64,000 nt of DNA from Chiloscyllium plagiosum (Eukaryota), in NCBI RefSeq assembly GCF_004010195.1, contig NC_057739.1, forward strand, positions 27,849,570 through 27,913,569, written 5' to 3'. This document shows, one piece after another, positions 25,750 to 63,170 of the stretch (its first letter is position 1; each line of letters begins with the position of its first letter). The notes beneath the pieces are model-generated. The model searched no databases. It was not told where the DNA came from and worked only from the letters and a program-made list of their open reading frames with translations. The position numbers and the translations under genes are program-made.

Positions 25750-26290
25750 GGTGACAACCTAGTGGTATTAAAATGACTGAATCCAGAAATTCAGCTAATG
25801 TGCTAGGGACCCAGGTTCAAATCCCAACTCACCACCATAACAAATGGTGGAATTGGAATTTAATAAAAAAATCCAATTGACCATTTAACCATTGTCAATT
25901 GTCAGGTGGGAAAAAGAAAGTCCATTTGGCTCAGGGAAGGAAATCTGCCATCCTGACATGGTTTGGCCTACTTTGACTCCAGACCCACAGCAACACGGTT
26001 GACTCTCAAACTAAAAGTGTGGCACTCGAAAAGCACAGGTCAGGCAGCATTTGAAGAGCAGGAGTGTCAACATTTTGGAACAACGCCGAAATGTTGACTC
26101 TCTGCTCCACTGATGCTGCTTGACCTGCTGTGCTTTTTCAGCACCACACTTTTTGACTCTGATCTCCAAGGCTTGCAGTCCTCACTTTCTCCTGCCCTCT
26201 GAAAGGACCGAGCAAGCCACTCAGTTGGCTGAGTGCAAGAAGGCAGCCGACTACCACCTTCGCAAGGGCAATTAGAATGGGCAATAAATG
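25750..26290 (+). mobile_element. DeuSINE/SacSINE1-like SINE interrupted by a fold-back Penelope-derived insert (about 26012-26192)
   Basis: tRNA-like head with ggttcaaatccc; the body is split by inverted arms aaagtgtgg..gaaaagcacaggtcaggcagcat / atgctgcttgacctgctgtgcttttt..ccacacttt. Confidence 0.6.
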
Positions 26291-27256
26291 CTGGCATCCC
26301 ATGAATGAATTAAAAAACTATTCAATATGTGATCTGCCTGTATTGCTCGCAAGACAAAGCTTTTCACTGTGCCTCGGTACATGTGACAATAAATTCAATT
26401 CATGTAACTTGCTGAGATTGAGAAAAAGTGTTTCAAATATCAAATTTGCAGGACAGAAGGACATTCACCACTTTACTGGACGGGTTCAACCACAACTCTG
26501 AAGAAATCAGACAACCATCGCTACAAACCAATATGCTTGAACAGTGCACCCAGTACTGGAATGGTAGTACTGCAGCATTCACCAAGCTTACTTGAACAAC
26601 ACCTTACCAGCTCAGTCACCACTATCACCAAGAGGAATGGGGAAAGGAGGATCACTATCAATAAGTTTCTCTCTCATGTCACAAAGCCGAGTTGGCACTC
26701 AACTATCCCATTAGGAAGCCCCCAAAACCTCACAGCCAACAGCACTGCAATTGAGGAACCAACGCAAAAGCTGCTCACGGTGGTTAGGGGGAAGCAAGAT
26801 GAACACTCCTAGTGCTAACCGTCATTTCAAAAAGGAGCAAAACCAAGACTTTTGGGAGAAGGGGGAGCCGATGGTACTGAGCAACGGGGGACCCTGCTGG
26901 GAGTCTGAAGCCCCACTGAGGCCCAGAAAGCCGATGAGCCCTCTCCCGCAGACTCTGCTCAGCAAGGCCCACATCTCCAAACCTCCCAGTGGCGGGGTTA
27001 TCTATGGGGACCAATATGCAGGGAGGACGGGGCCGGCGCCATGTAAGTAGACACACGGCGGCCTGCGGCCGATCAATCGATCATCCGCCATGGTTTAAAC
27101 GTAAAATCTACAAAGCCTCACAAATAAAAGGCCGACACGATAGAGGGGAGCCCGGTGATTGACTGGAGCCAGTTACTGCAACTATTCGAGCGATATTTTT
27201 TCAGGATTAAATCGGATTCTCCAATGGACAGAAACAGGCAACACATAAACTCCTAC

Positions 27257-27259
27257 CAT
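27257..27259 (-). CDS. RPL35: RPL35 exon 1 coding part (ATG only)
   Basis: ccttttcctgcgcctgcccaagacaATG|GTAGGA; total CDS 3+137+82+150=372 nt, which is 123 aa plus stop. Confidence 0.88.
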
Positions 27260-27276
27260 TGTCTTGGGCAGGCGCA

Positions 27277-27288
27277 GGAAAAGGTAGG
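27277..27288 (-). promoter_or_regulatory. 5'TOP/TCT polypyrimidine initiator of RPL35
   Basis: cctaCCTTTTCC about 20 nt upstream of the ATG, typical of vertebrate ribosomal protein genes. Confidence 0.75.
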
Positions 27289-27699
27289 CCGAGGGGAGGG
27301 GCCTGTATTTCCACGTGACCGGTTCTACCATCCACTTCAAGGAGGGGAGGAGACAGACAACAGAGATATCCATTAAGTCAGATTTTTAACTTTACACAAA
27401 CATCATCGTCTTTTTAGAAACACATTTTTGCTTGTCTATATTCTATCGTTGTAACTAATTTAACGACGAGGTTCAATTTTCAACGAGTTTTGTTGAGTTT
27501 GGTTTCCTGCCCTCTCCCACAGATTGCACATTCCAGAGGTTGTTTCCGGTTCCGGGTCAAGCTTCAGCAGGCCCCGGGTTTGAGTGGAAGCAGCGCGATC
27601 TCCCGGTGCCGATGCAGCCTCCGGCTCAGTAGGGTGCGGAGTGAGGGAGTGGCTTATCGTCCCCATTAACATTTGCTCTTTTAACATAAGCAGGGGCAG

Positions 27700-27839
27700 A
27701 TGGCGAAAAACACGCTCTCAAACAGGTTTCGGAAAGTCGACGTTGATGAGTACGATGAAAACAAGTTTGTGGATGAGCAGGAGGAGGCGGTGGAGCAGCA
27801 GGGGCCCGATTCGCTGGAGGTGGACACTCTCATCAGGCA
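27700..27839 (+). CDS. ARPC5L: Arp2/3 complex subunit 5-like exon 1
   Basis: [46 protein letters not shown](Q)|ATATCCTT (U12 donor). Confidence 0.95.
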
Positions 27840-28659
27840 ATATCCTTCTGGCCGCGGGGGCCGTCTCCCTCTGTGCGTGAGCGCGCGTGTGTGAGAGAGA
27901 CCAGGGGCTGGCTGGCAGAGCGCCGCACACCCTGGGAGGGAAGGTGACAGCTCTCCCCTCCCCGTGCCCGCGGACCCCTCACTCTTCCCCCTGGGAACCG
28001 CATCCGCTCTCAAACTGCTGCCGACTATTAACGGCGCTGCCGGGCAGCCTGGAGCTCCCCTCGAGTGAAATTAATGACGTTGGTTTCGCACTCATCCTCC
28101 ACTGGATTGCTTCATTTTCATCGAGGTGTCGTTTAACTGACGACTTCAGTGTGAGTTGGTTATATCTTGTGCAGAATTAGTCATTTTGGAGACTTGTTTA
28201 AATCTTTTATTTTGAATGTTCAATGTTTTCCCCGCTGTGTTCAGCACTTTAAGACCTCAAACTTTTATCAGATCCGAGTGTGGAAATTGGAGGAAGGACG
28301 GACGAGGTCAATACTACTCGGTTTGTCTCTTAAAAATAGTAAAAGATCCACCGTTGTACAAGCTGTGATTGGAGTAGCAGTCAAGTCTCGGAGACAGACG
28401 ATGAAGACACCCAAAATGACATCTAAGAAATCTACTTGTCAGAACTCAGTTCGAGCTCCAAACGTACTATTGCTAAAATTAAATCATGATCCCAAAAATG
28501 TTGTTCCACCATCCAACTGGCACGACAGCCTACTGTTTTGGAACCTGATTTGAGGTCTTGTTTAAGTTAGAAAATAACCCCAATCATTTTCAGCTGCAAT
28601 GTTAACGTCCAGCCAGAATTTGAGTATTCTTAGCCAGGTCCTGCATTCTTACAAACATT

Positions 28660-30110
28660 TAAATTAAGAACAGGACGAGGCCACTTGATCCCCCTGTCAC
28701 TCAATAAGGTCATGAGGGTACTTGAGCACTGGTTGTGCACTTGAGCCAGAAGGCCTGGGTTTAAGTCCTGGCAGCTGCACAAGTTTACCATAATATTTCT
28801 GATATTGAGAAAATAAATTCAATAAGATCATGCCTGATCCGGTTATTCCATGTAATAGGTAGGTGGGGATAACATTTCAACCACACACACATGTCAGGAA
28901 TCTATTTAACTCTACCTTAAAAGAAATTCGAAGACTCTGTTTCCACCACTTTTTGTGGAAGAGCTTTCCAAAGACTAATGACTTTCTGGAAAATTTTCCT
29001 TATGTCTTAAAAGGTTCTGGAATCTTCCCATGAGGGGAGATTTCCTTTCCAAACCCTACCCTATTAAGGCTTGTCAGGATTATGTTTCCCTTACTCTTCT
29101 AAACTTCAGAATCAAGCTTAGCCTATTCAGCTTTTATTTGTAAGACAACCTGCTCATTCCAGTTATGAGGAGAAAGTGAGGACTGCAGATGCTGGACAGT
29201 CAGAGGCGAATAGTGTGATACTGGAAAAGCAACTCCCTCTCCCACTCCGACAAGACATGCAAGTCCTGGGCCGCCTCCACTGTCAAATCTAAGCCACCTG
29301 ACAACTACAGGAAGAATACCTCATCTTCCACCTTGGGACTCTTCAACTATATGGCATCAACATCAACTTCACTACTTGCCCCATCTCATACCAGATCCGA
29401 CCCTCCAACTTGGCACTGCCCCCTTGACCTGTCGGACCTGTCCATCTTCCTCCCCACTGACCTATCACAATCACCACCACCCCCCGCACACCTATTGCCT
29501 TCCCAGCTACCTTCTACCCCCCCCCTATTTATCACTCAGTCCCTTTACCCCCAACATTCCTGATGAAGGGCTTATGCCTAAAACATTGACTCTCCTGCTC
29601 CTTGGATGCTGCCTGACCTGCTGTGCTTTTCCAGTGCCACACGTTTTGACTCATTGCAATTATGAGTCATTTAACGCTTCTCTGAACTGCTTCAGGTATA
29701 TCATATTTCCTTTCTTCAATAAGGAGAACAATATTATTTGCAGCACTCGATGTGGTCTCACAAATGCCCTGTAAGGTTGGAGAGTAATTTACTTTTTGTA
29801 TTAAATTTCCCTGACAATAAACAGTAAGATTCTATTAGCTTTCCTAAATACTTGCGTGCCAACCTTGTGATTCATAGATGAGGACACTGTGTTTTGGAGC
29901 ACTGCAAGCACTCACCATTTAGATAATATGCTTCTTTCTTAATCTTGCAGCCAAAATGGGCATTTTTACTTGTATACCATTTGCTAGATTTTTGCTGACT
30001 CATTTAAACTACATCCTCTCTCTGAGATTACTTTCCTACCTACGCTTGTCTTTCGTGAACATACCTTTGGTCCGTTCATCCAAGCTGTCCCTATAAATTG
30101 TAAGAAGTTG
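28660..30110 (-). mobile_element. Old CR1 fragment(s) interrupted by a Penelope insert
   Basis: Degenerate reverse-complement CR1 3' region on both sides of 29170-29649. Confidence 0.65.
29170..29649 (+). mobile_element. Penelope 3' fragment with an inverted 5' segment and an imperfect 17-bp TSD
   Basis: QLQEEYLIFHLGTLQ remnant; ctgatgaagggcttatgcc motif; TSD ctcattccagttatgag (29153-29169) / ctcattgcaattatgag (29650-29666). Confidence 0.75.
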
Positions 30111-30114
30111 AAAC

Positions 30115-30307
30115 CCCTGCGAAACAGCCGGGGTTGTTAGAATATTGAATGGACTCACAAAACCCTTAGCATTCGCCTGTCCCTGTGTTTCTGTTTTTGC
30201 TGCTGTTTACCTATTATTTACTTAACTATGCGATCTGCCTGTATTGTTCACAAGACAAAGCTTTTCACTGTGCCTCGGTACACGTGACAGTAAATTCAAT
30301 TCGATTC
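30115..30307 (+). mobile_element. Non-LTR element 3' tail; second copy at 26318-26402
   Basis: gatctgcctgtattg.tc.caagacaaagcttttcactgtgcctcggtaca.gtgaca.taaattcaattc is shared by both copies. Confidence 0.65.
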
Positions 30308-31165
30308 ACCTCCAATACTGATCCCGTAGCCCATCACTTGTTACATTTGCGAGTTTGACCAGCCATTCTGTAAGATCACATCTGATCTGATTATATCTTC
30401 AACTCCATCCCCAATAATGTTTCACCACTTTGTTAATCAATAATCTATCCATCTCTGCCTTAAAAACCTTACCATTTGGTTGAGATGAACTATTGTACAT
30501 GATGTTCATTAGCTCCCAAAGGTGAAGCTGCTGTCAGTGTATAATGTTTGAAGTGCAAATGGAAGGGTAAGGTGAAAAGTCCAGTTTACATTTCTGGATA
30601 ATAATAGCAGTTGTGCACAATCTTCTTTGGATCTGTTTCCATTTTCCTCACAACTGATATGTATGCTGATCCAGGGGATGTTTCTTAATTGAACAAAAGT
30701 ATTTTTCTAGATGGAATTTGTACTTTTGAATGATTAATATTAGTTCTGAGATCTAGATGATAGAATTTTACATTCAATTTGAAGAGTGGGACTAAATGTA
30801 TTGAACTTAAGGGCAACTTTAAAAAACAAATTGCTGGAGAAATTAAGTAGAGGTTCATGATGAATCCAGTGACCCTTTTTCAGAAGGGTTACTGGACCCA
30901 TAATGTCTACAGATGCTGCCAGACTTGCTGAATTTCTCCAGTAATTTGTTTTTGTTAAGGAGAACAAATGTGGTCCTGAAAAGGTGAGAGAATGTGTACT
31001 GGGATCCGAGGTTAGGGGATAGATTGATTAACAAGTAGTGAAAGACTTTTAAGGGAATATTTTGGAATACTCACTAACCTGTGTATAAACCTGTCACTAA
31101 AGAACACACATTGGATTTAAATGTTTGAAATAAAACTTATTGTTCCTTGACCTGTAATCATGTAC

Positions 31166-33148: not shown

Positions 33149-33320
33149 CCTTTTTATCAAATACTGTTCAGCTACATAAATTTGCTGTGAATATTCCTAA
33201 CGTATATCATCACCACATCAAGACCACCTATTTCCTCCTGCTCTTGCTTCACCTTATCTTGTATAGAAACCATTAATACTGTTATCTTTTATACTTGATC
33301 ATTCCTTGACATGTTGAGGT

Positions 33321-33780
33321 TCTGGTTGTAAGTTTGCTAGCTGAGCTGGAAGGTTTGTTTTCAGATATTTTGTGACCATACTAGGTAACATCATCAGTGA
33401 GCCTTTGGTGGAATGCTGGTGTTATATCCTGGTTTCTTAAGGTGGGTGAAATCATTTCCGGTTCTTTTTCTCAGAGGATGGTAGATGGGGTCCAAATCAG
33501 TGTTTTATTTATTGATGGAGTTCCGGTTAGAATGCCAGTTTAATGCTTGACATTCTAACTAAAACTCCATCAATAAATAAAACACTGATTTGGACCCCAT
33601 CTACCATTCTGAGAAAAAGAACCAGAAATGATATCAACTACCTTTTTTAGAAACCATGACACAAATAGAAAGTAGGACACAACACCAGCGCTCTACTGGA
33701 TGCTCACTGATGTTACCTAGTATGGTGACAAAACATCTGAAAACAAACTTTCCAGCTCAGCGAGCAAACTTACAACCAGA
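33321..33780. repeat. Long inverted repeat made of two Penelope 3' ends
   Basis: tctggttgtaagtttgct..aaatcagtgttttatttattgatggagtt / aactccatcaataaataaaacactgattt..agcaaacttacaaccaga; arms of about 215-230 bp. Confidence 0.9.
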
Positions 33781-38189: not shown

Positions 38190-38295
38190 CTACAGTGTAA
38201 ATAGAACAATATTTAGTAAATCCACTCGATGTTAATTCGCTAAGAGTAGAAGCAGGTAAGACTCAGTGAATAAGTAGCAACAGATTATGCCATAC

Positions 38296-40190: not shown

Positions 40191-40339
40191 CTTTAATTGA
40201 GAAAAGATTTAATATGGCATCAATCATAATTCCATATTTTTTTTTAAAATCAAAAGAAAGTCTGAACAGCTGATATTTCTATTTTGCAGAAATCCATTAT
40301 CATGTTTCAACTCCAGTTACAAACATATGAATTAAGAGA

Positions 40340-40640
40340 CAAAAGTAGAAATTGCTGGAAAAGCTCAGCAGGTCTGACAGAATCTGTGGAGAGAAATCAG
40401 AGTTAACATTTCAGGTCGAATGATCCTCCCTCAGAATGCTGCCAGATGCTGTGCAGATGAAGAACTGCGGTTGCTGTAAATCAGAAACTTAGCAGATCTG
40501 GCAGCATTCTGAGGAAGGGTCACTTGACCCAAAATGTTAACTCTGATTTCTCTCCATAGATTATGCCAGATCTGCTAAGCTTTTCCAGCAATTTTTATTT
40601 TTGTTTCAGATTTACAGCATTTGCAGTTCTTTCGGTTGTT
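40340..40640. mobile_element. Fold-back Penelope-derived insert with a 15-bp TSD
   Basis: Inverted arms of about 100 bp; TSD atatgaattaagaga at 40325-40339 and 40641-40655. Confidence 0.8.
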
Positions 40641-41845
40641 ATATGAATTAAGAGATAGGCCAATCGGCCCCTCAAGCCTATTCTACCATTGGAAAATATG
40701 GCTGATCTAAACTGTGCTCTTAATTCTTTTCCTGCCTATCCCCTATATGACTTTGATTCACCTGTTATTCAAGAATGAACTCTGCCTTGACAATATTCGA
40801 GGACTCTGTCTCCACCACTTTGATGAATAGAGTTCCACTGACACATGATGTTCCGAGAGAAAATAATTCTCAAAATTTTCTCAACTTATTTTTAAACTAT
40901 GTCCTTTACTTCTAGTCTCTTTCACAAGGTGAAAGCATCCTTTCAGCATTGAGCTATTGAGGAATTTATTCATGTAGAATTTCTGTTTGCCTGATCCAGA
41001 GAATATAGGCTTCCTAAGAACAAACGCTTAAAAACCCTCAAATATGTACAAAGCTACTGCTGGAACTTAATCCAGTAAAACTGCACATCGTCACTTTCCA
41101 GATTCTCAAATGAAGAATGAGAACAAAGCAGTTTTGTAAATATATACAATTATTTTCTTTAAAAAAACTTGGAAAAAGATATGCTAAAGATGGTTCCCCT
41201 GAACGAATATCTAACATTGCGCAAAATAATAGTAAACCATAAAATTTAAAACTTCAGTTTTTTGAACAGGTGAAAAATGAAAACATAGTTAGTTTTAATT
41301 TGTCAGATCCAAAGTCACGAATAATTTAAACTGGAAAAACCTTGCCATTAATTTGAAACACGGGTGAAAGCAACTAAAACCAAAGATTAAAAAAAATGAA
41401 TGGCAACTTCAAAAACAGGACATTGTAGGTAATATAGAAAATGCTGTAAATACTCAGCAGATCCAGCAGCATCCTCAGAGAGAAACAGAATTAACATTAC
41501 AGGTCTCTGACCTTCAAGCTTCATTGACCTGAAACAATAACTATCTTTCTCTCCACAGATGGCCCCTAACCTGCAGGAACTAAATTGGATTTGTCAAACT
41601 AAAAATAAATCTATTAATTAGTAGTTTTTTTTTTATTTCAGCGAGGCGATGAAAAGGGAAGTATTCTTGGAACAATTCTCCAGACAATGTTATTTCAGTA
41701 TCAGGTACAGACTGCAATTTAGGACAATAACATTTGCCACACTTTAACACGTGCAAAATCTACTTCTGACCCATTTTCGGGTTTGATTGATTGAAAAATC
41801 CTAAGTAATCTGTTTAAAAGATGTAACTTAATGCAAACTCTTTAC

Positions 41846-44775: not shown

Positions 44776-45997
44776 GTATTTAATCTGTCTGTGATTAAAT
44801 AAGTAATAGGCAAAACTGGTAGGTTCTGCCAAAGCACTTTCTCAAAATAGGTAAGTCAGCTCTTAGCTGGTCCAACACAGTTTTATATAGGATCTATTGG
44901 GAACAGTAACATGGTGGTAACATTGCAGAAGTATTCATCCAGAGGCCTTGACTATGCTTCAGAGACATAAGTTCAAATTAAACACTGACAGCTGGTGCAA
45001 TTTAAATTTAATTAATAAATCTGGAATTATGGGCCAGGAAATTTCCTGTTGATTGTCACATAGTTGCCACCTTCAACAGATTAATCAATGTTCCTTCATG
45101 TTGAACACCACTGGAAAGATGTGGCAGTGCCGGTGTTGGTCTGGGGTGGACAAAGTTAAAATTGACAACACCAGGCTACAGTCCAACAAGTTTATGTGGA
45201 AGTATAACCTTATGTTGACTTTTAACTTTTACCACTGGAAAGAAGCACTAAAGGTAGCAATGGCAACGAATTTGCTCAGGGTGGGGTACTTCAATGGCTA
45301 ACATCAAAAATGGCACAGTAGCATCACTACAGACTATCCTAAAGAACACATCTGTCAGATTGCACCTGCAGAAGGTGGCAAGAAAAGAAAAATCTATTCT
45401 TCTACTTGACCTTGCTCATCTACCTATCACAGATGCATTTGTCCATAACTGGACTGGTAGTGACAACCCCACGTTGTTTTACATAGATGAAACGCCATTT
45501 TCACAGAGAGACCCTCCATGGTTTTGTGTGGCACAACCATCATGTTACATGGGATAGATTCAAAACAGATTTGACAGCTCAAACAAACAGAATGCTGGAA
45601 AAACTCAGGAGGTCTTTGGAGAGAGAAACAGGAGTTAATATTTTGAATCTGGTATAACTCTTTTTCAGAATTTGCAGTTCAAATTTGGATGTCCATGACC
45701 TGGGCCTGATTCAATGAGGAATAGAGGACAGGATGTCAGGAGCAGCACAGCTATCAATCAGGGATAAAGCTGATGAAGCTACATGTATGTGAAAAAGCAG
45801 AAGCAATATGCAATAGATAAAGTAAAGCAATCCTGCAAACAACTGATTAGACTTAAAACCCAGCAATCTGTTTCTTCTATTCAGGAATGATGGGGACAAT
45901 TAAATAACTAACAGATCGTCAAAGCTCCACAAACAGCAATTCTCAATGATGGCAAAGCCCAGCACATCAATGTTGAAAAAAACAAGATTGAAGCATT

Positions 45998-48928
45998 GGG
46001 AAAAGGTTGAGATTCTGAAGGGAGATTACAGAGAGTTAGGCAGAAATTTAAAAAGGAGGTCCTCAAGGGTAGTAATATCTGGACTACTCCCAGTGCTACG
46101 AGCTAGGGAGGGCAGGAGTAGGAGGATAGAGCAGATGAATGCATGGCTGAGGAGCTGGTGTATGGGAGAAGGATTCACATTTTTGGATCATTGGAATCTC
46201 TTTTGGGGTAGAAGTGACCTGTACAAGAAGGATGGATTGCACCTAAATTGGAAGGGGACTAATATACTGGCAGGGAAATTTGCTTGAACAGCTTGGGAGG
46301 ATTTAAACTAGTAGGTGGGGGGGGGGGGGAGGGGGGGGACCCAGGGAGATAGTGAGGAATGAAATCAATTGGAGACGGGTATATCTGGAAACAGAAGTGA
46401 GTTAAACAGTCATGGCAGGCAGGGACCAGGTAGGACTAATAAATTAAACTGCATTTACTTCAATGCAAGGGGCCTAACAGGGAAGGCAGATGAACTCAGG
46501 GCATGGTTAGGAACATGGGACTGGGATATCATAGCAATTACAGAAACATGGCTCAGGGATGGGCAAGACTGGCAGCTTAATGTTCCAGGATACAAACACT
46601 ACAGGAAGGATAGAAAGGGAGGCAAGAGAGAGGAGGGGGAGTGGCATTTTTGATAAGGGACAGCATTACAGCTGTGCTGAGGGAGGATATACCCGGAAAT
46701 ACATCCAGGGAAGTTATTTGGGTGGAACTAAGAAAGAGATGATAACCTTATTGGGATTGTATTATACAACTCGCAATAGTCAGAGGGAAATTGAGAAACA
46801 AACTTGTAAGGAGATCTCAGCTATCTGTAAGAATAATAGGATAGTTATGGTAGGAGATTTTAACTTTCCAAGCATCGACTGGGACTGCCATAGTGTTAAA
46901 GATTTAGATGGAGAGGAATTTTTTAAGTGTGTACAAGACAATTTTCTGATTCAGGATGTGGATGTACCTACTAGTGAAGGTGCAAAACTTGACCGACTCT
47001 TGGGAAATAGGGCAGAGCAAGTGACTGAGGTGTCAGTGGGGGAGCACTTTGGGGCCAGCGACCATAATTCTATTCGTTTTAAAATAGTGATGGAAAAGGA
47101 TAGACCAGATCTAAAAGTTGAAGTTTTAAATTGGAGAAAGGCCAATTTTTACAGTATTAGGCAAGAACTTTTGAAAACTGATTGGAGGCAGATGTTCACA
47201 GATAAAGGGATGGCTGGAAAATGGGAAGCCTTCAGAAATGAGATAACAAGAATCCAGAGAAAGTATATTCCTGTCAGGGTAAAAGGGAAGTCTGGTAGGT
47301 ATAGGGAATGCTGGATGACTAAAGAAATTGAGGGTTTGGTTAAGAAAAAGGAAGCATATGTCAGATATAGACAGGATAGATTGAGTGAAACATTAGAAGA
47401 GTATAAAGGAAGTTGAAGTATACTTAAGAGGGAAATCAGGAGGGCAAAACGGGGACATGGGATAGCTTTGGCAAATATAATTAAGGAGAATCCAAAAGGG
47501 TTTTTACAAATATATTAAGGACAAAAGGGCAACTAGGGAGAGAATAGGGCCCCTCAAGGATCAGCAAGGCAACCTTTGTGTGGAGCCACAGAAAATGGGG
47601 GAGATACTAAATGAATATTTTGCATTAGTATTTACTGTGGAAAATGATATGGAAGATATAGAGACTGTAGGGAAATAGATGGTGACATCTTGCAAAACGT
47701 CCAGATTACAGAGGAGAAAGTGCTGGATGTCTTGAAACGGTTAAAGGTGGATAAATCCCCAGGACCTGATCAGGTGTACCCGAGAACTCTGTGGGCAGCT
47801 ACAGAAGTGATTGCTGGGCCTCTTGCTGAGATATTTGTACCATCGATAGTCACAGGCGAGATGCCGGAAGATGGGAAGTTGGCAAACGTGGTGCAACTGT
47901 TTAAGAAGGGCAGTAAAGACAAATCAGGGAACTATAGACCGGTGAGTCTGACCTCAGTGGTGGGCAAGTTGTTGGAGGGAGTCCTGAGGGACAGGATGTA
48001 CATGTATTTGGAAAGGCAAGAACTAATTATGGATAGTCAACATGGCTTTGTACGTGAGAAATCATGTCTCACAAACTTGATCGAGTTTTTTGAAGAAGTA
48101 ACAAAGAAGATTGATGAGGGCAGAGCAATAAATGTGATATATATGGACTTCAGTAAGGCGTTCGACAAGGTTCCCCATGGGAGACTGGTTAGCTAGGTTA
48201 GATCTCATGGAATACAGGGAGAACTAGACATTTGGATACAGAATTGGCTCAAAGGTAGAAGACAGAGGGTGGTGGTGGAGGGTTGTTTTTCAGACTGGAG
48301 GCCTGTGACCAGTGGAGTGGCACAAGGATCGGTACTGGGTCCTCTACTTTTTGTCATTTACTTAAATGATTTGGATGCGAGCATAAGAGGTACAGTTAGT
48401 AAGTTTGCAGATGACACCAAAATTGGAGGTATAGTGGACAGCAAAGAGGATTACCTCAGATTACAACAGGATCTGGACCAGATGGGCCAGAGCTACAGGA
48501 AGAGGCTGAACAGGCTAGGGCTGTTTTCCCTGGAGCGTCGGAGGCTGAGGGGTGACCTTATAGAGGTTTACAAAATTATGTGGGGCATGGATAGGATAAA
48601 TAGGCAAAGTCTTTTCCCTGGGGTCGGGGAGTCCAGAACTAGATGGCATAGGTGTAGGGTGAGAGGGGAAAGATATAAAAGAGACCTAAGAGGCAACTTT
48701 TTCACGCAGAGGGTGGTACATGTATGGAATGAGCTGCCAGAGGACGTGGTGGAGGTTGGTACAATTGCAACATTTAAGAGGCATTTGGATGGGTATATGA
48801 ATAGGAAGGGTTTGGAGGGATATGGGTCGTGCTGGCAGGTGGGACTAGGTTGGGTTGGGATATCTGATCGGCATGGACAGGTTGGATCGAAGGGTCTGTT
48901 TCCATGCTGTACATCTCTATGACTCTAT
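45998..48928 (+). mobile_element. CR1 LINE (end of ORF1 esterase plus ORF2), with an internal deletion near 48490
   Basis: VVISGLLP..DGLHLN, YFNARGL..ITETWL, VGDFNFP, SDH, SPGPD, NYRPVSLTS, DFSKAFDKVPH, KFADDTK; tail ctctatgactcta. Confidence 0.93.
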
Positions 48929-49715: not shown

Positions 49716-51447
49716 CTGTCAGAGCAATGTGCATTTCTTTAATGATTCACAGAAACAAAATTAGGAATCGCGTTGGCCAGAGTACAAAACATAGAATTTT
49801 ATAAAAGCTGAAAAATAATATTCAATTGCAAACAGAGTAAATACCAATCTGTTCCAAGCAACAGCACAGCATTTTTTTAAATTAAAAAGTATTTACTTAA
49901 ATTAAAATTATCATTTTAATTTGGGAAGTAATTTTTTTTAAAAAATTAATAACTTTTACTTGGGAAATGAATTCTAACCTTTTAATTTTAAAAAAATGTT
50001 GTGCTGTTGGATAGAATAGATTCCCCTGTTCTCCAGTAAGATGGGCCTATTCATGGCTAGCTGATGTCAGTTAAGGTAATGGTAAAGGTGACAAAATTAT
50101 TTGCAACATTGCTGGGTTTAAATAATCAGTGTTCAGCTCTATCTGTCTGGTTAGAAGTCTTGGTTCACACATGAAGAACAGCCACTTCAGCAAGATATCA
50201 CTTGAATGACACGGCTACAGAATAATATTCCATAGACAAACTTCTTCTGCAGAAATAAGGAGCTGGAAACAGTTAGGAAAAGAAATTCAAAACTATCAAG
50301 TTTTAAAAACTCACCAAACAGTAACTGACCCATTATCAAAGACACAAACTCCAGTAATTTCATTATAAGAATATGGATTTTCTATTTCACTTAAAATAAG
50401 AGAATTCCACACTGCTCCCTTGGAAACATCCCATTTAGTTTGAGGTATAGGTCATAGATAACAGAAAGCCCCTATAAGGCCATTCTAGCTGCTGCCCATA
50501 TTGTGAATGTAGGTGAAAAGACTGGGCACAGGATAAATCAAACAGATTCCAGATGAAGGATAGGTTGGAACTATTGAAACTCATAAATGGATTGCATTAC
50601 AGCACAGACTTCTTGAAATTGAAGATATGCCAGGTGAGTGCTGCAGTCTGTGTTACTTATTGATACCTGATGACCTTCAAGGAATTTGAATTTCCCTCCA
50701 TTCCAAGGAAACTGAAAATTAAGCACACATTTCCTGAAGGACCAAGAAACCTTTGGTGACTACAATGCCACTGTTAGGGTCAGCCACCACATTAATTTGT
50801 TAATTGAAAAGTGACATGTCAATTGTAGGAACAAACAAAACTAGAAGTGGCAGGAGAAACTCAGCAGGTCTGACAGCAACTGTGGAGTGAAAACAGAATT
50901 AATGTTTCGAATCCAATGACCCTTCTTCAGAACTGGATTTTAGTGTCATTGGCAGTTATCATCTGATAGTGTCCCAGTTAACCATATATACAAGGTAATA
51001 GTTTGTTCTGGTTGAGATTATTAATACATTTTTTTCTAACAGATGTACATAGTTAGGACCACAGAAATGTTCCATATCTGCAAGATCACTTCTTGGCAGT
51101 AAAACGAAGGAAAAATAGTTAACTTTTAACATGTTCTTCCTTTTCACAAGATGGTTTAATATATTGATCCAGAAGCAATAAAAGATGATGTCACAGAAGA
51201 TCAATAATAAATAAAATTAGATTTTTAAAAACAGAATCCATACAGTGTGGAAACAGGCCCTTCAGCCCAGCATGTCCACACTGACCATCCAAAGGGTCTG
51301 CCACCCTGACCCAAACCCGGGTCCCTGGCGCTGTGAGGCATCAGTAATGAGCTACCGTACCACCATGATTTGTACTTACAAGTATAGAATATCCAGCAAC
51401 TTGCAGAAATTAGCGTGTTTAAATCATGGCTGAGACAGCTAACATAC

Positions 51448-54635: not shown

Positions 54636-54818
54636 TTCTTGTGTTTCATTTCTTGGAACTTCTCAGCATTATGGGAGTGCAACTAAAGTGAAAATCTTCT
54701 TGAACTTTCAAACAGATTTGTCTCATCTCCAGGAATTTCAAACTGATCAGTACTTTACCTGAAATTTTCCAACAAACCCTTTCAACAAAATAGCTTTATT
54801 GTTTCTCCCAAAAATATT

Positions 54819-55716
54819 CCCAATTCCTTCGTCTCCGCCATATTCCCAATTCCTTCGTCTCCGCTGCATCTGCTCCCAGGAGGACCAGTTCCAATAGCGA
54901 ACAACCCAGATGGCCTCCTTCTTCAAAGACCACAATCTCCCCCCAGATATGATCAACGATGCTCTCCACCGCATCTCCTCCACTTCCCGCTCCTCCGCCC
55001 TTGAGGCCTGCCCCTCCAATCGCCACCAGGACAGAACGCCACTGGTCCTCACCTACCACTCCACCAACTTCCATATACATCGTATCATTCGTCGTCATTT
55101 CCGCCACCTCCAAACGGACCCCACCACCAGGGATATATTTCCCTCCCCTCCCCTATCAGCATTCCGAAAAGACCACTCCCTCCGTGACTCCCTCGTCAGG
55201 TCCACANNNNNNNNNNNNNNNNNNNNNNNNNNNNNNNNNNNNNNNNNNNNNNNNNNNNNNNNNNNNNNNNNNNNNNNNNNNNNNNNNNNNNNNNNNNNNN
55301 NNNNNNNNNNNNNNNNNNNNNNNNNNNNNNNNGGCTGGAGGAAGAGCGCCTCATCTTCCGCCTAGGAACCCTCCAACCACAAGGGATGAACTCAGATTTC
55401 TCCAGTTTCCTCATTTCCCCTTCCCCCACCTTGTCTCTGTCCCAACCCTTGAACTCAGCACCACCTTCCTAACCTGCAATCTTCTTCCTGACCTCTCCGC
55501 CCCCACACCCACTCCGGCCTATCACCCTCACCTTAACCTCCTTCCACCTATCGCATTTCCAATGCTCCTCCCCCAAGTCCCTCCTCCCTATCTTTTATCC
55601 TAGTCTGCTTGGCACACTTTCCTCATTCCCGAAGAAGGGCTCATGCCTGAAACGTCGATTCTCCTGCTCCTTGGATGCTGCCTGACCTGCTGCGCTTTTC
55701 CAGCAACACATTTTCA
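54819..55716 (+). mobile_element. 5'-truncated Penelope-like element with a 15-bp TSD
   Basis: PYSQFLRLRCICS..PLVLTYH..PPLSAFRK..SLRDSLVRS, then LEEERLIFRLGTLQPQGMN; TSD tctcccaaaaatatt at 54804-54818 and 55717-55731. Confidence 0.88.
55207..55332. other. Assembly gap (126 N)
   Basis: Run of n inside the Penelope element. Confidence 1.
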
Positions 55717-56835
55717 TCTCCCAAAAATATTACCAGGTTATCTTGAATTTTGAGTGTTTCATTCAAATGAAACTGGTAAGCAGTGAAATACCAGTCACAT
55801 ACAAATTAAACCAAATGTGCAGCAATATATTATTTATTTTTCTTCATCTATAACTGACTAAACTTGTAATAGTGTGCCAATATAAAGTTAATATAGGACC
55901 TAAACAACAGTGATTTTTAAAAACACTTCTGTACTTGGACCATTTTAGTGACTGCATTTAGGAAAATTTAAAATCTTTGCAAGGATGGTGTTTGCCAGGA
56001 TGTTAATAGAGCTGGAGGACTTCAATTATGAGCACAAGTTGGAAACGTTAGGACAACTCTCCTTTGATCAGAGAAGATTAAGACATGACCCAATTGAAGT
56101 TTTAAAGTCAGAAGTTTTGATAGAAGGGAGTAAAGAAGATACAATCTAAGCAATGTGAATCAATAGTCAGACATCACAGATTTAAAATAATTGGCAAACG
56201 ATCTAAATGAGAGAATGACAGAAGTGTTTTCACTCAGATTTATTCGGAACCTGAAAGGTCTGACCGGGAAACATACTGGACGCTGAATGCATAAATAACT
56301 TTCAAAGAGATTTGGAGATGAGGAACTTTGGGTCCTGAATAAATAAAACAGAGATGAGTCTAAGCATGACTGAACTAGCACAGCAACAAAGGGCCAAATG
56401 GCTTCTTTGGTGCTATAAAGTTCTGTGATTTGTGACTGGATTAAAAAAGATGATTACCAAATAAAACAAAGATAAGTAACTTTTAAAAAAAAAATCACAA
56501 ATAAATTGTGAAATAAAATTCAGAAAGTTCACAACTTCTTTTTGCAGAGCCTACAGTGTTGATATTTATATATTAAATTTGTTCCACCAGTTGCACAGAT
56601 TCTTTAATTAGGCATCAGCATTTCGTGATTGCCACACTAGCAGATGAATACTTCTGCCACTAAAACAATCAAGCCTCAGAAAGTGCAGATTCCTAAATCT
56701 ACAGCATCACTGATTCACTCTGGAAACTGAGCTTTGTCCTGATTGTCTTTAGAAATTAAGGAAAACTAGCTAGTATGACAATAAGAAAGAAATCCACAGA
56801 TGTTTAATTACCATTTATCATTAATTGGAACAAAC

Positions 56836-57596: not shown

Positions 57597-57911
57597 TAGA
57601 TTAGATTAGATTAGATTATAGTGTGGAAACAGGCCCTTCGGCCCAACAAGTCCACACCAACCCGCCGAAGCGCAACCCACCCATACCCCTACATTTACCC
57701 ATTACCTAACACTACGGGCAATTTAGCATGGCCAATTCACCTGACCTGCACATCTTTGGATTGTGGGAGGAAACCGGAGCACCCGGAGGAAACCCACGCA
57801 GACACGGGGAGAATGTGCAAACTCCATACAGTCAGTCGCCTGAGGCGGGAATTGAACCCGGGTCTCAGGCGCTGTGAGGCAGCAGTGCTAACCACTGTGC
57901 CACCGTGCCGC
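57597..57911 (-). mobile_element. Young HE1-type SINE with a (TCTAA)n tail
   Basis: ggcggcacggtggcacagtggttagcactgctgcctcacagcgcc..cccgggttcaattccc; CpGs retained. Confidence 0.9.
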
Positions 57912-58892
57912 CAACTACTGCAATCTAATATTGCAGTATGCTTATAAAATTATTTTGTGAATAAAATTATTGTGAAGTATTTGAAGAATGGTCACTAGAT
58001 GCGAATCTTTAGCTCTACTTTCTGCGAGACCTGCTGAGACTTTTCAGCGATTCTGTTTTTGTTGTGAAATACTGCTGTTGTTTTCAAAATGACAGTTTAA
58101 TTAATAATAAAAGATTTTTCAGGTTTCTTAATTTGATGCTTGCTTTCTGCACCAGATAGGATCACTATTCGTTGATAGCTTTAGTAAGTGCTTCACAACA
58201 ACAGAATGTTGTTTTACAATGTATTCCAATTACATTCTTTCCACAGGCTACAAAGGTCAGCTATGCAAGCTTCTCATTTTCCCAGCTATAGAAACCATGT
58301 GGGAGAAGTCAAATAAAGGAGACACTAATTACAAACTATGCTTAATTTTTAGAAGAATATCATATGTTGAAATTACAAATCATGAAAAAGTATAAATATT
58401 TTTAATCGTTCTAACTAGAACAGTCTTAATTTTATGATTTTCGTACATTATAGAACCTTTTATACCTGTTAAGACTATTCAATAGACAGTAAAATGGAGT
58501 TTGAATCACGATTGTAATAGATTGCTAACTAGTTAATGTGCTCTTCAAACATCCAATTACTATATTCCTACAGATATTTAGCATAAGTTAATGTAATAGA
58601 AAAAAGTGTCATACAAAGTATCAATTCCATGTAGAAAGGAAGTAACAAGGAAGTTGATACAGCAATTAGCTTAGCAAATTTAAAAATAAAAATTATATTT
58701 TGAAATGGGGATGTTTTCGAAATGTTCCAGCAATTGGTCACCCAACATGATCATTAGGAGTTGTGAAACAAGTCTCTAATCTGCCTTCTCAGCCTGGAAC
58801 AGTAGTGACATTATGTGGAATGAAAAAAATCATTAAAAATATTACTTTTAAAAAAACGATTCTGGATTGTAATTTTAGAAACTAGTACTAAC

Positions 58893-58988
58893 CTTTGATT
58901 TTTCCAGTTCACACTCAACTTTCCTCAACGTGTTTTCTGTATCATTAAGCCTGTCACTTAGTTCTTCATTTTTCTTTTGGAATTGGCT
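58893..58988 (-). CDS. GOLGA1: GOLGA1 exon (most 5' exon found in this window)
   Basis: TAG|SQFQKKNEELSDRLNDTENTLRKVECELEKSK|GTTAGT; 96 nt, coiled-coil composition. Confidence 0.8.
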
Positions 58989-59089
58989 CTATGCACAAGT
59001 AAACACAAATAGATGTATATGCATACTGATAATTGCAAATTATATCTTGTCATGTTCACCATGCTGGGGAACATAATACGTTCCTTTTC

Positions 59090-60240
59090 AATTAGTGTAA
59101 GAGCTTTGTTTTCCTGAGAGCAGAGGAGTTTGAGAGGGAACATGATGGAGATGACGGACATAGATAAGAGTAAACAAGAAGAAATATTTCCCCTTAATGG
59201 AGAAATAAATGAGCATGGGGGATAGATTTAAGGAAAGGGGTAGTAGGTTTAGAGGAGATGTGAGGAAAAATATTTTCACTTAGAGGATGGTGGGAATATA
59301 GAACTCACTGCCTATAAAGGTGGTACAGGCAGAAACTCTCAAATATTTGAGCCATGTATTTGAAATTAGATGCTTGTTTTTGACTAGTTCAGGCACAATG
59401 GGCTGAAGGGCACTTTTTCTGCGTTGTAGATCTTGATGACCCCTAATATACTTAGAAAATGCCTTTACATTTTCCTTAATGCTAACAGCCTGTGTTTCTT
59501 CATGTTCCCCCCTTTATTCTCCTAATTTCTTTCTCAATCAGCCTCCTGCACTTTCTAAAATTCTCTAGGGTTTCCACTGTTTTGAGCCTTTGGTATCTTT
59601 CATAAGCTTCATTATTTTTCCTTAATCAAGCTTGTGAACCTCTTGGCAACCAAGAGGTTGTGAACCTCTTGGCAACCAAGGTTCTTTACATTTATTGGTC
59701 CCACCCTTCAACTTTACCAGAACATGCTGACCATGCATTCTCACTATCATCATTTTTTAATGTCTCCCACCGCTCTAGTGTGGATTTTCCTGCAAGTAGA
59801 TAATACTATTTCACTTGGGCAAGATCCTGTCTTATCTTACTAAAGTCGGCCTTCCTCTTTTCAGAACCTTCATTTCTCATCCATCTTTGTCCTTATCCAT
59901 AATTACCTTAAATCTTACTAAATTATGGCCATTATCACAGAGATGCTCTTCCACTGCCGCATCTACTTCCTGTCTGCCTTCATTTCCTAAAATTAGCTCC
60001 AGCTTTGCTCCTCCTCTTGTAATACTTTCTATGCGCTGGCTTAAAAAGCTCTGCTTGACTTATTTTAAGTTTCTGCCCCTCTAAGCCTGAGCTAGTTTAT
60101 TTTAGGGAAGTTGAAGTTCCCTACCATTATTATCCAATTTACCTATTCAGTTTGTCTTCCTATCTTTCGACTGTTTGGGGATCTACAGTACAACCCTATC
60201 AAAGTGATTGTTCCCTTTTTAAGTTCTACTCATATGGCCT
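59090..60240. mobile_element. Two old CR1 fragments (59090-59440 plus; 59450-60240 minus)
   Basis: ggagatgtgaggaaaaatattttcact 3' motif; reverse-complement endonuclease GNFNFP remnant near 60100-60125. Confidence 0.65.
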
Positions 60241-60241
60241 C

Positions 60242-60600
60242 TGTAGTGATTTGAAATATGGCCAGGTGGATCTCATACCCTGGGAGATCCTTGATTGGGG
60301 TTGTGTCAGCCCTGGCTGACAGATCTAAACAGGAAATTCAAAAGGTCTCTTCAGGCCACAGCCCATATACAGCGCAAATGTAAATAAGGGGTGACTTGGT
60401 GATGGGAAACCGGTCTCTCTGCAGCTCTCTAAGTGGCAATAAGAGTGGGATTAATGACAGAGCCATGCAAAAGCACTTAGCTGAAGCCCAACTGGACTTC
60501 AAACAAGCATTACAACTAGTTTTGCCATTAGAAAATGTGGCAAGTGGAGCATGGGAACTACATGGCATCCCAATGGAAGTGGACACCCTCACCTTACCTG
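60242..60600 (+). mobile_element. Putative Gypsy LTR plus start of internal region
   Basis: Starts tgtagtga; shares gagatccttgattggggt and atgtaaataa.gg..cttggt.a.ggga.ac.gg with the inverted copy at 62185-62700. Confidence 0.5.
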
Positions 60601-60604
60601 AGCT

Positions 60605-61970
60605 TACATAGAATAGAACATTACGGCCTTCGATGTTACACAGAGTTGTGAAACCAATCTGAAGCCTATCTAACCTATACTCTTCCTTTATCATTCATGT
60701 TCATCCAATGATTATTTAAATGCCTTTAAAGTTGGAAGTCTACTACTGTTGTAGACAGGGCAGTAACGCCCCTACTACTCTCTGATTAAAGAAACTACCT
60801 CTGATATCTGTTCAATATCTATCATCCCTCAATTTAAAGCTACGTCTCCTCGTGCTAGCCATCACTATCCGAGGAAAAAGACTCTCACTTTCCACTCTAT
60901 CTAACCCTCCGATTATCTTGTATATTTCAACTAAGTCACTTCTCAATTTTCTTCTCTCTAACGAAAACAGCCTCAAGTTCCTCAGCCTTTCCTCATCAGA
61001 TAACATCCTAGTAAAATAAGGAGAAAGCAAGGACTGCAGATGCTGGAGATCAGAGTCGAGAGTGTGTTGCTGGAAAAGCACAGCAGGTCAGGCAGCTTCC
61101 GAGGAGCAAGAGAATCAACGTTGCAGGCATCCCAATTCCTGATGAAGGGCTTATGCCCGAAATGTCTGCTCAGATGCTGCCTGTCCTGCTGTGCTTTTCT
61201 AGCACCACACTCTCGACAACATCCTAGTAAGCTGCCTCTGAACCCTTTCCAAAGCTTCCATACCCTTCCTATAACGCGGTGACCAGAATTGTATACAATA
61301 TTCCAAGTGCGGCCACACCAGAGTTTTGTACAGCTGCAACATGACCTTGTGGCTCCGAAACTCAATTCCTCTACCAATAAAAGCTAACGCACCGTATATC
61401 TTCTTAACAACCTTATCAACCTGGGAGGCAGCTTTCAGGGATCTATGTAAAATGGACAACAAGATCTCTCTGCTCATCTACACTACTAAGAATCTTACCA
61501 TTCGCCCAGTACTCTGTATTCCTGTTGCCCCTTCCAAAGTGAATTACCTCATTTTTCCGCATGAAACTCCATTTGCCACCTCTCAGCTCAAGTATACAGC
61601 TTATCTATGGCCCTCTGTAACCTGCAACATCCTTCGGCACTACCCACAACTCCACCAACCTTACCGTCATCTGCAAATTTACTAACTCATCCTTCTGCGC
61701 CCTCATCCAGGTCATTCATAAAAATGACAAACAACAGTGACCCCAAAACAGATCCTTGTGGTACACCACTGGTAACTGAACTCCAGGATGAACATTTCCC
61801 ATCAATCACCACCCTGTCTTCTTTCAGCCAGCCAATTTCTGAACCAAACCACCAAATCACCCTCCATCTCATGCCTCTGTTTTCTGCAATAGCCTACCAT
61901 GGGGAACCTTATCAAACGTCTTACTGAAATCCATATAAACTACATCAACCACTTTACTCTCATCCACTTT
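60605..61970 (-). mobile_element. CR1 3' fragment interrupted by a fold-back insert
   Basis: [42 protein letters not shown]. Confidence 0.9.
61015..61217. mobile_element. Fold-back Penelope-derived insert with a 13-bp TSD
   Basis: TSD aacatcctagtaa at 61002-61014 and 61218-61230; inverted arms; ctgatgaagggcttatgcccgaaatgtc. Confidence 0.85.
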
Positions 61971-62184
61971 CTCAAAAGCTTGGGAAACATCACTTGAATG
62001 TAAGCAATTGCAGAGCATCACGCAGGGCATATTCCGAGCAGGGGAACCCTAGGTCAGCCCACAGCAAAACTGAGCCTTGGCCAAATGGCTATAAAGTTCT
62101 TCAAGATCCGAGTTGGCAAGCTATTGTAGTTACTGCTGGTATGTGGACTCGAGACAGCAATGGTGTCCTATGTGGCCTGACTTA

Positions 62185-63170
62185 AATAAGAGAACTCATA
62201 GGCCAGTATCCCGTTACCAAGACATCCTTTATTTACATGTGCAATCTACACGGGCTCATATCTGTTCGCCAGGGATGCCTGATTGGAACTGAAAATGTGT
62301 TGCTGGAAAAGCGCAGCAGGTCAGGCAGCATCCAGGGGACAGGAGAATCGACGTTTCGGGCATAAGCCCTTTTTCAGGAAGGGCATTCCTGAAGAAGGGC
62401 TTATGCCCGAAACATCGATTCTCCTGTCCCCTGGATGCTGCCTGACCTGCTGCGCTTTTCCAGCAACACATTTTCAGCTCTGATCTCTAGCATCTGCAGA
62501 CCTCAATTTCTCCCCATGCCTGATTGGAAACAAAACAAACTGCTGGAAAAACTCAGCAGGTCTGGCGGCATCTGTACAGAGAACTCAGAGTTAATGTTTC
62601 GGAATGATGAGTGATCATTCCTCAGAAGGGTCCCCTGATCAACCCAGGTTAACAACCCCAATCAAGGATCTCAGTCATGACCGTGCTTCCACTCACTACA
62701 AACCTCCCCCACTATGTCTGGGGGTATAGGCCAGCTCTTTGTCTTGTAGCTTCTCCTGAGATATTTTCATCCCAAGTCTGGTTCCTCTGACTGACTCAGA
62801 TGTGGACATGAGTGGCATGTACAGCGCCTGCAGTGTCTTGGGAGAGTTTCCTCCTTTTCTTCCAGTGGTAATGGAATTGAGGCTGCATTCATCTTGGATT
62901 CTGAAGGATTTCTAGACACTAGATGGAGGGGCAGAACCCATGTATTCTGAAACCTTTCTGGCTGTTCGGAGTGGCCAGGTATGTTTTGCTCCTGCACTGC
63001 GTTCAGCTTTCAGGTGATCCACATTTATTCAGGACCGCCTCACCCACTCAAACGTTTGAGTGTCATGGGACCTGACCTCGTGTTAACCTCACTTCATACC
63101 CATGCTGAGCCATTTCTGAGGTTCTGGCACCAAACTTCACCTCTTGAAGTAAACTGTCTCTCTTGCTTAG
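62185..63170 (-). mobile_element. Putative Gypsy 3' end (integrase-tail remnant, polypurine tract, LTR interrupted by inserts)
   Basis: Minus strand reads gtgggggaggtt|tgtagtgag near 62700; LTR similarity to 60242-60430. Confidence 0.5.
62289..62515. mobile_element. Young fold-back Penelope-derived insert with a 14-bp TSD and hammerhead motifs on both strands
   Basis: Arms 62289-62380 and 62386-62477 match at 90 of 92 positions; TSD atgcctgattggaa at 62275-62288 and 62516-62529. Confidence 0.92.

Follow-up and report, generated by a model that had tools for sequence, protein, structure and literature searches.

Head-to-head inverted insertions of three Penelope-like families with decayed hammerhead motifs in a 64,000-nt window of Chiloscyllium plagiosum

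Fold-back inserts and solo copies

The window analysed here, a 64,000-nt stretch of Chiloscyllium plagiosum, holds nine short inserts in which two arms of the same element meet head to head. An earlier note on this DNA had reported at least seven from about three families; all seven were recovered as inverted pairs of three sequence families (A, B and C), and two further ones were detected (41431-41560 and 62530-62653). Its suggestion that dsRNA hairpins are seeded in introns is borne out by five inserts lying between mapped exons; near-perfect hairpins of 70-110 bp have been placed in introns of an Arp2/3 subunit gene and a golgin. Below, positions are those of the window, arm positions are signed relative to C3 of the hammerhead box CUGANGA, TSD denotes a target-site duplication, and fold-backs are given without strand.

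26010..26193, family A fold-back without TSD; the inverted arm (+18 to about +90) lacks a tail, the sense arm (+18 to +124) has one
29153..29666, family A fold-back; 17-nt TSD with 2 mismatches (29153/29650); short inverted tailed arm +65 to +124, long sense arm -328 to about +90
30822..30956, family B fold-back; arm starts -2 and +5 with GAA in common; internal deletions; no tail or TSD
33313..33780, family C fold-back; its centre lies within the degraded end of a reading frame, some 140-160 nt upstream of the hammerhead; no TSD
40325..40655, family B compound fold-back; exact 15-nt TSD (40325/40641); inverted tail-less arm, inner inverted fragment (tail, deletion) and tailed sense arm
41431..41560, old family B fold-back, additional; arm starts +5 and +6; no TSD
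61002..61230, family A fold-back; exact 13-nt TSD (61002/61218); inverted tailed arm about +14 to +124, sense arm -4 to about +88
62275..62529, youngest family A fold-back; exact 14-nt TSD (62275/62516); arm starts -3 and -5, 5-nt spacer, 95% complementary, right arm tailed
62530..62653, minus-strand family B copy that stops at -2, then a short degenerate sense arm; this second arm is weak (26/37 identical)
54804..55731, plus strand, long 5'-truncated family A copy, non-inverted; it comprises the 3' part of the ORF, an assembly gap, the 3' UTR and a hammerhead (55629), and extends to about +88; exact 15-nt TSD
90..304, plus strand, family A copy, non-inverted; intact minimal hammerhead with C3 at 214, stem I of 4 bp
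50833..50932, minus strand, solo family B copy, about -4 to +97; minimal hammerhead core with C3 at 50930

The 26.0k insert sits inside a SINE-like repeat, and its paralogous empty site (5148-5227) is without duplication. At 29.2k the long sense arm contains the GIY-YIG ORF C-terminus, the 3' UTR and a decayed hammerhead, and at 33.3k decayed hammerheads lie close to both outer ends. The 62.3k insert (62289) folds into a 96-bp hairpin of -193 kcal/mol (z -26.5). The non-inverted copies have the same ends as the fold-backs, and one of them also has a TSD of the same size; no intact autonomous element was found in the window.

Family assignment and the hammerhead motif

The Penelope origin postulated by the earlier note holds for family A, whose ORF remnants match carpet-shark proteins with an RVT_1/YIDD motif and a GIY-YIG domain. 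A tblastn search of RT/GIY-YIG proteins against the window gave a match at 29251-29355 (65.7% over 35 aa). GIY-YIG in the matched shark proteins exceeds the Pfam cutoff in one of four hits, with E values of 0.0003-0.005 in the other three; a Pfam search of the window fragments themselves gave no hit, and the protein atlas search no usable match. With RT and, at the C-terminus, a GIY-YIG domain, family A is, judged from its sequence, an endonuclease-positive Penelope-like element (PLE), which we take to be Neptune-like. Family B has no ORF content in the window and family C only a degraded ORF end; both are putatively assigned to Penelope by common layout, cross-similarity and ORF-end motifs, the tool-based protein link being confined to family A. 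Family C is presumably Poseidon-like. At class level we are highly confident that the inserts are 5'-truncated Penelope-like insertions.

Most inserts had been said to carry intact or decayed hammerhead motifs. This holds for decayed motifs, but intact ones are nearly absent: both core boxes (CUGANGA and GAAA in register) occur in only 2 of 14 arms (61139 and 62389, stem I of 0 and 2 bp), the first of these, the 61.0k sense arm, having lost the 3' strand of stem I. The 26.0k insert lacks the CUGANGA box in both arms, and no intact catalytic core was found in the fold-back inserts. Full minimal motifs are present in the window only in the solo copies at 214 and 50930.

Alignment of 11 motifs gave 80.8% paired cells against 70.2% when shuffled, and 11 double changes against 4.8 (0 of 500 shuffles), figures that come from three independent families only, with stem II of family C misaligned and the structure drawn from the same sequences. 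The double changes fall on four of nine pairs, and A15.1-U16.1 is invariant in 11 of 11 motifs. As both stems, I and II, show covariation between the three families, it seems that the motif has been under selection; by core boxes, predicted stems and covariation it is classed as a minimal type I hammerhead, as had been proposed. An Rfam search up to E 5 returned no hammerhead family and only sub-threshold miRNA-like hairpin hits; a miRNA identity was rejected, these hits being below gathering scores and reflecting the palindromes. The monomer 55620-55720 folded no better than its shuffled versions (z +1.0). Metagenome scans gave 0 hits with a 25-nt motif and 81 loci with a 19-nt motif, none with similarity extending past chance length.

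Duplications, tails and inversion junctions

TSDs of 13-17 bp enclosing the whole inverted unit, claimed for four inserts, are indeed present at four of the seven; neither of the two additional inserts has one. Among 3000 random window pairs, one had an exact match of at least 13 nt. The outer ends of the arms are fixed at two places, about +86 to +98, or +124 to +126 where a tail is present. A full tail of 35-40 nt is found at one outer end in five of seven inserts, is absent in one and possibly partial in another (7-8 extra nt at the left end of 33.3k may represent a partial tail). Two inserts, 29.2k and 61.0k, have their tail on the arm with the shorter 5' extent.

The inversion centre had been placed at, or a few nt 5' of, the hammerhead motif in several inserts, which is correct for four of the seven (30.8k, 40.3k, 61.0k and 62.3k); at 26.0k it lies within stem II, and in two it is distant (29.2k, +65/-328; 33.3k, about -140/-159). 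The nine inserts represent at least seven junction types. The -2/+5 junction occurs twice (30.8k and 62.6k), with GAA shared in both, in two inserts that are only 75-78% alike. Seven of nine junctions fall within -8 to +20 (uniform null, p 3e-5 to 0.02), a value we do not rely on, since the range was set after viewing the data and truncation favours short copies.

The 5' ends of the window arms cluster about 4 nt before CUGANGA. The predicted cut site lies between +27 and +28, and none of the 18 arms starts there; with the cut 28 nt further on, ribozyme action is a less likely cause of the clustering than a predicted RNA start. Three of eight copies have an initiator-like motif whose A is at -4, and one more has it at -5 (chance 11% per 15 nt). 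Genome-wide, with contigs aligned to the 3' part of the 54804..55731 copy as reference, each of the three runs with data has, as its largest loose end on the upstream side, one that consists of element sequence to about -4 followed by AT-rich sequence without consensus (849, 819 and 109 records). Subfamily-specific UTRs could mimic part of this boundary. A cap-derived extra G before -4 was raised from two unclassified joints and is not claimed.

Short copies are numerous enough in the genome (108,834 contig records from one run) for junctions to be mapped against fixed landmarks. It should be noted that contig data under-detect symmetric junctions and that counts from run X1 are lower bounds. 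Among the 15 joints listed of 65, six join opposite strands; joints whose kind is not given (55659 and 55668 to 55625, 55716 to 55674-55676) do not enter the count of inversions. The six listed joints are all different, with 1-4 contigs each and a depth of 18-70 against 13-17 for single-copy flank. One arm lies at -8 to +5 in all six; the second arms start at +28, +29, +30, +33, +45 and +55, so that four of six lie 0-5 nt beyond the cut site.

Sister arms are clearly each other's closest relatives in three of seven inserts (62.3k, 100% versus up to 95%; 40.3k, 87% versus up to 82%; 33.3k, 90% versus 75-81%), as expected if both were copied from one source RNA. At 26.0k, 29.2k and 61.0k each arm resembles other copies as closely as it does its partner.

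Origin of the inversions and relation to known elements

The inserts probably did not arise by copying of a finished unit; each fold-back was likely formed during its own insertion. The reading we favour, with modest confidence, is that they are 5'-truncated insertions of three Penelope-like families, each built anew by two-strand priming, run-off near -4 and microhomology joining. Extrapolating from work on the anole Poseidon element, an intact copy would provide in trans the RT/GIY-YIG protein, which would make a staggered cut and prime reverse transcription on both target strands, once at the inner start site and once at the tail end. The cDNAs would either extend to a preferred 5' end of the RNA near -4, a predicted transcription start, and run off there, or stop earlier, and could then be joined via inverted microhomologies of 2-5 nt from the self-complementary hammerhead region. 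The ribozyme would be a passenger beside the RNA start, not a delimiter. The alternative put forward in the earlier note, a repeated by-product of reverse transcription stalling and switching template at the ribozyme, was broadly right in seeing a repeated by-product of insertion; stalling at the ribozyme is rejected, since the main boundary lies beyond the entire motif and a reverse transcriptase reaching -4 has already copied all of it. A fixed 5' end of the RNA, with joining by microhomology, would fit better.

The inversion could instead come from self-priming on one molecule, by snap-back of a cDNA 3' end or by an antisense transcript priming itself. The -2/+5 junction seen twice in family B corresponds to a 3-bp stem with a 4-nt loop, similar short microhomologies occur at the inner junction of 40.3k and at the centre of 62.3k, and the sister arms at 62.3k are near-identical. 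Simple snap-back on a single first cDNA cannot, however, put the tail on the shorter arm as at 29.2k and 61.0k, and for this reason two primers are favoured. Antisense self-priming, proposed for rotifer Penelope elements in the excerpted text of PMC3846280, would by our inference also permit that placement, but the anole protein in vitro uses sense RNA and target-primes both strands (PMC11167929). Self-priming is, in our judgement, rather unlikely. Our literature search, which looked for shark hammerheads and for a published model with two primers or with snap-back, gave only this antisense proposal; Repbase/Dfam, subscription journals and supplements lay outside it and may list these families.

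We further considered whether hammerhead cleavage sets the 5' end of one arm, cleaved RNA (+28) and uncleaved RNA (about -4) being copied and joined. The listed second arms beginning at or shortly after the cut, and the stem covariation, would fit; yet no window arm begins at +28, and no loose-end peak appears there among the 18 rows listed of 1100. Complementarity of stem I yields microhomology at the same coordinates without any cutting, and could explain the four second-arm starts equally well; mismatches of the reference copy inside the motif may moreover clip alignments toward +28. Anole ribozyme mutants insert normally, with no RNA reads ending at the cut site (PMC11167929). Cleavage of this kind seems improbable to us, and we are likewise doubtful that shark junctions record hammerhead action in vivo, one arm of many fold-backs stemming from RNA cut at the ribozyme and the other from uncut RNA starting 4 nt before the motif. 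Were it true, ribozyme cleavage and two-primer Penelope integration could be read, as in a fossil assay, from tens of thousands of shark insertions.

It is very unlikely that a Penelope protein amplifies a non-autonomous, MITE-like fold-back retroelement as a unit, an option that the earlier note had offered in a ribozyme-delimited form. The hammerhead-to-end segment stands far above the upstream UTR in contigs (about 22M versus 0.8M summed depth in run X1, counts being at least these), one junction type occurs twice in the window, and the two outer arms at 40.3k share an identical 11-nt junction sequence, which may mean that a fold-back was re-copied once. Against this, junctions, arm lengths and subfamilies vary among loci, and the similarity of the two -2/+5 inserts is only 75-78%; no junction of identical type and length recurs at many loci in the window or among the six listed inversion joints, none of which exceeds about 5 single-copy depths. 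The most abundant short copies appear solo, their loose ends lacking consensus. As junctions vary and the common 5' boundary lies about 30 nt upstream of the cleavage site, delimitation by the ribozyme is unsupported. That the palindromes formed later than the insertion, within ordinary truncated copies and through conversion or template switching during replication, is hardly credible: the shared 40.3k junction and a perfected 8-bp hairpin at 62606-62626 resemble quasi-palindrome correction, but TSDs surround the entire inverted unit in four inserts, and a neighbouring copy that lacks a tail could not have templated the arms that bear one.

In the excerpts of PMC3846280, PMC8557442 and PMC2377424, the Penelope-like insertion pattern comprises a one-sided tail of 30-40 nt, an adjacent inverted 5'-truncated copy and a TSD, with a pLTR. 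The shark inserts display this head-to-head pattern with one-sided tail and TSD; they add members to a known insertion pattern, and the finding is mostly ordinary. With canonical endonuclease-positive PLEs (Penelope/Poseidon, Neptune), as these excerpts describe them, they further share a GIY-YIG ORF end before the UTR and heavy 5' truncation. Most shark units are only 130-480 nt, however, and the TSDs are of 13-17 nt, those of the rotifer examples being of 8-10 nt; the -4 clustering and ribozyme-helix microhomology are shark features with no counterpart in those excerpts. How inverted ends form in Penelope elements and whether the ribozyme cuts in vivo are questions that can be mapped with shark copies.

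For the anole element PAc in vitro, two RT start sites flank the tail, cutting and extension take place on both DNA strands, and the prediction is of a dimer (PMC11167929). Its start sites lie about 110-150 nt downstream of the hammerhead at the ORF start, compared with an inner end at about +90 and a tail end at +125 from C3 in the shark. That study leaves inverted units unexplained.

Metazoan PLE minimal type I hammerheads are, in the excerpted text of PMC4209133, mostly dispersed single motifs, with dual opposite-strand motifs 100-700 bp apart. Common to these and the shark motifs are CUGANGA, one bulged base, G10.1-C11.1, a palindromic GAAAC-GUH without loop III and a short stem I; sharks are not mentioned in that excerpt, and the shark insert motifs differ in being nearly all decayed. 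Animal non-LTR retrozymes, described in part of a preprint (bioRxiv 10.64898/2026.07.22.740005) and present in one cartilaginous fish, are like the shark inserts short, non-coding, derived from PLE pLTRs and equipped with type I hammerheads, and solo retrozyme monomers are common there. Retrozymes are tandem repeats arranged head to tail and include two or more complete ribozymes, however, and the shark inserts are head-to-head, single and decayed, none of them being a head-to-tail tandem with two or more complete hammerheads. Elsewhere in the genomes a few head-to-tail joints were seen among those listed, in 1-4 contigs.

Structure of the inserts and position of their junctions

All seven short inserts listed in the earlier note were found to be head-to-head inverted pairs, as it had described, and two further inserts of this arrangement were detected at 41.4k and 62.6k, the latter with a weak second arm. 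The target-site duplications (TSDs) reported for four of the seven were also recovered, one (17 nt) imperfect at 2 positions and the other three, of 15, 13 and 14 nt, exact; exact matches of at least 13 nt arose in 1 of 3000 trials of random window pairs. No TSD borders the 26.0k insert, and comparison with a paralogous copy of the interrupted repeat, in which the site is empty, bears this out. On folding, the 62.3k insert gives a single long hairpin (z -26.5).

Counted from C3, the C of CUGANGA, the outer ends of the arms lie at two places, one near +86 to +98 and the other at +124 to +126. The gap of 35-40 nt between these is the Penelope tail, which is present in full at one outer end in five of the seven listed inserts.

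Arm starts of the nine inserts in the window, relative to C3
26.0k, family A: +18/+18
29.2k, family A: +65 (tail arm)/-328
30.8k, family B: -2/+5
33.3k, family C: about -140/-159
40.3k, family B, compound: inner junction about +50/-2
41.4k, family B: +5/+6
61.0k, family A: about +14 (tail arm)/-4
62.3k, family A: -3/-5
62.6k, family B: -2/+5

The inversion centre had been placed at the hammerhead motif or a few nt 5' of it in several inserts; seven of the nine have an arm start in or just before the motif, and the other two do not. None of the 18 arm starts coincides with the hammerhead cut site, which by established numbering we take to lie between +27 and +28.

Some local rearrangements were also seen. 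In the 40.3k insert an identical 11-nt stretch, itself an inversion junction, is present in the two outer arms (40437-40506); its source is either re-copying of a fold-back copy or lengthening of the palindrome after insertion. In the 62.6k insert, rearrangement of the stem II region (62606-62626) has produced a perfect 8-bp hairpin incorporating core bases, which resembles a local template-switch correction. An AT-rich imperfect palindrome at 49846-50022 (70% over 187 nt) is unrelated to the three families, and a search for a TSD around it found none.

Element identity and the hammerhead motif

The best protein relatives of the element fragments in the window are in Chiloscyllium, Rhincodon and Stegostoma, which marks this vertebrate DNA as a carpet-shark type of genome; of families A, B and C, the tool-based protein homology link covers A only. 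By their ORF-end motifs, family A is tentatively Neptune-like and family C tentatively Poseidon-like. Non-inverted and older copies include:

54804..55731, plus strand: long 5'-truncated family A copy, non-inverted, with its own exact 15-nt TSD
54813-54865: direct duplication of ~25 nt at the 5' end of this copy, beside the TSD
22637-22822: old family C fragment, ORF end and hammerhead region
23732-23767: old family B fragment, tail only

The description of the motifs in the inserts as intact or decayed was upheld only in part, as both core boxes are present in only two of 14 arms, neither with a complete stem I. Complete minimal hammerhead motifs persist in two other non-inverted copies, with C3 at 214 and 50930. 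In the 11 motifs compared, which come from all three families, 80.8% of cells in stems I and II are paired vs 70.2% in shuffles, and double changes number 11 vs 4.8 (0 of 500 shuffles as extreme). Since only three families are independent and the structure was derived from these same sequences, the covariation is supportive of a hammerhead structure, short of proof.

Genome-wide survey and formation of the fold-backs

Contigs of three runs, among 24 runs on record, were compared with 55334-55760 of the non-inverted copy at 80% likeness, giving 108,834, 81,181 and 7,292 matching records. The segment from the hammerhead to the element end is ~25-fold or more deeper than the 30 nt upstream. Subfamilies with different UTRs may explain part of this excess, as the 29.2k UTR fails to align with the reference UTR. 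In each run the largest upstream loose end follows the element to about -4 and then becomes AT-rich, with an agreement of 0.37-0.38, which points to numerous solo copies beginning there. In X15, a run guessed to be RNA, the segment 55664-55708 exceeds the upstream UTR by >100-fold, compared with ~25-fold or more in the DNA runs; short copies within transcripts may be the cause.

Six strand-changing joints were among the 15 of 65 joints listed. No two are alike, each is found in 1-4 contigs (counts in run X1 being lower bounds), their depth is 18-70 vs 13-17 in single-copy flank, and two of the six were found in both organisms. The first arms start at -8, -7, -5, -2, +3 and +5 and the other arms at +30, +28, +29, +33, +55 and +45. 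The suggestion of an amplified fold-back unit with a recurring junction is not borne out, as no amplified junction was among the 15 of 65 joints listed, from contigs that show symmetric palindromes poorly. The highest depth among joints listed, 290 in X1, belongs to 55716 -> 55674-55676, which may mark the pLTR core repeated head to tail in a 42-nt unit. Joints that lead back, head to tail, from the inner end to the hammerhead (55634-55720; 4 contigs in run X12, at least 1 in X1) suggest rare retrozyme-like tandem dimers of the short unit elsewhere in these genomes.

Taken as a whole, the earlier note was confirmed in its observations and partly supported in its interpretation. In the anole, the Poseidon protein, a predicted dimer, cuts both target strands, extends them, and begins reverse transcription at two internal sites flanking the tail; elements with a mutated ribozyme still insert normally (PMC11167929). 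For the shark inserts we infer that both target ends would prime, one per start site, that the cDNAs would run off at a favoured RNA 5' end near -4 or halt sooner, and that short inverted microhomologies would join them. A transcription start is predicted at the -4 boundary. In Drosophila, Penelope carries an internal promoter that includes an initiator (PMC2377424), and an initiator-like motif with A at -4 in three of eight copies (chance 11% per 15 nt) weakly backs such a start.

The alternative is self-priming, by cDNA snap-back or from an antisense strand. Its antisense form has been proposed for head-to-head units of the same kind (PMC3846280), and the recurrent -2/+5 junction amounts to a neat 3-bp snap-back hairpin. 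In the 29.2k and 61.0k inserts, where the tail is on the shorter arm, snap-back on one cDNA is insufficient; such an arrangement calls for a pair of RNA-templated events or for an antisense template. That the junctions record ribozyme cleavage in vivo is improbable. The one result favouring a role for the ribozyme, the clustering of second-arm starts at +28 to +33 among the listed joints, is ambiguous, because -4 to -1 is complementary to +28 to +31 via stem I, so that microhomology joining would reach the same place, and mismatches that the reference has within the motif can shift clipped alignment ends to this point.

Relation to known elements and host genes

An inverted truncated copy with a one-sided tail and a TSD is typical of Penelope-like elements (PLEs; PMC3846280; PMC8557442). 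With their head-to-head arms, a full one-sided tail in five of seven and a TSD in four of seven, the present inserts are shark examples of this already described pattern. Minimal hammerheads occur in pLTRs, chiefly as dispersed single motifs, with pairs sometimes on opposite strands 100-700 bp apart (PMC4209133). Animal retrozymes are pLTR-derived head-to-tail tandems (bioRxiv 10.64898/2026.07.22.740005), whereas the shark inserts are head-to-head and do not qualify as such. In the main texts of openly available papers that were searched, none relates inversion points to the ribozyme or describes these shark families.

Hairpin-forming inserts had been said to seed introns, and this is borne out for five inserts. 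In the plus-strand Arp2/3 p16 subunit gene (P16-Arc matches at 27.7k and 32.2k) the 29.2k and 30.8k inserts are in intron 1 and the 33.3k insert in intron 3; the 26.0k insert lies upstream of the gene. Exons of a minus-strand GRIP-domain golgin gene flank the 40.3k and 41.4k inserts, more coiled-coil-like exons are present at 41.8k, 49.5k, 53.2k and 56.8k, and golgin introns likely also host the 61-62k inserts. Intron 1 of the p16 gene (27840-31165) has AT-AC termini, its 5' site and branch point are of minor-spliceosome type, and joining exons 1 and 2 across it preserves the frame. A golgin intron contains a long LINE remnant at 45904-48919, with matches to an esterase-like ORF1, endonuclease and RT.
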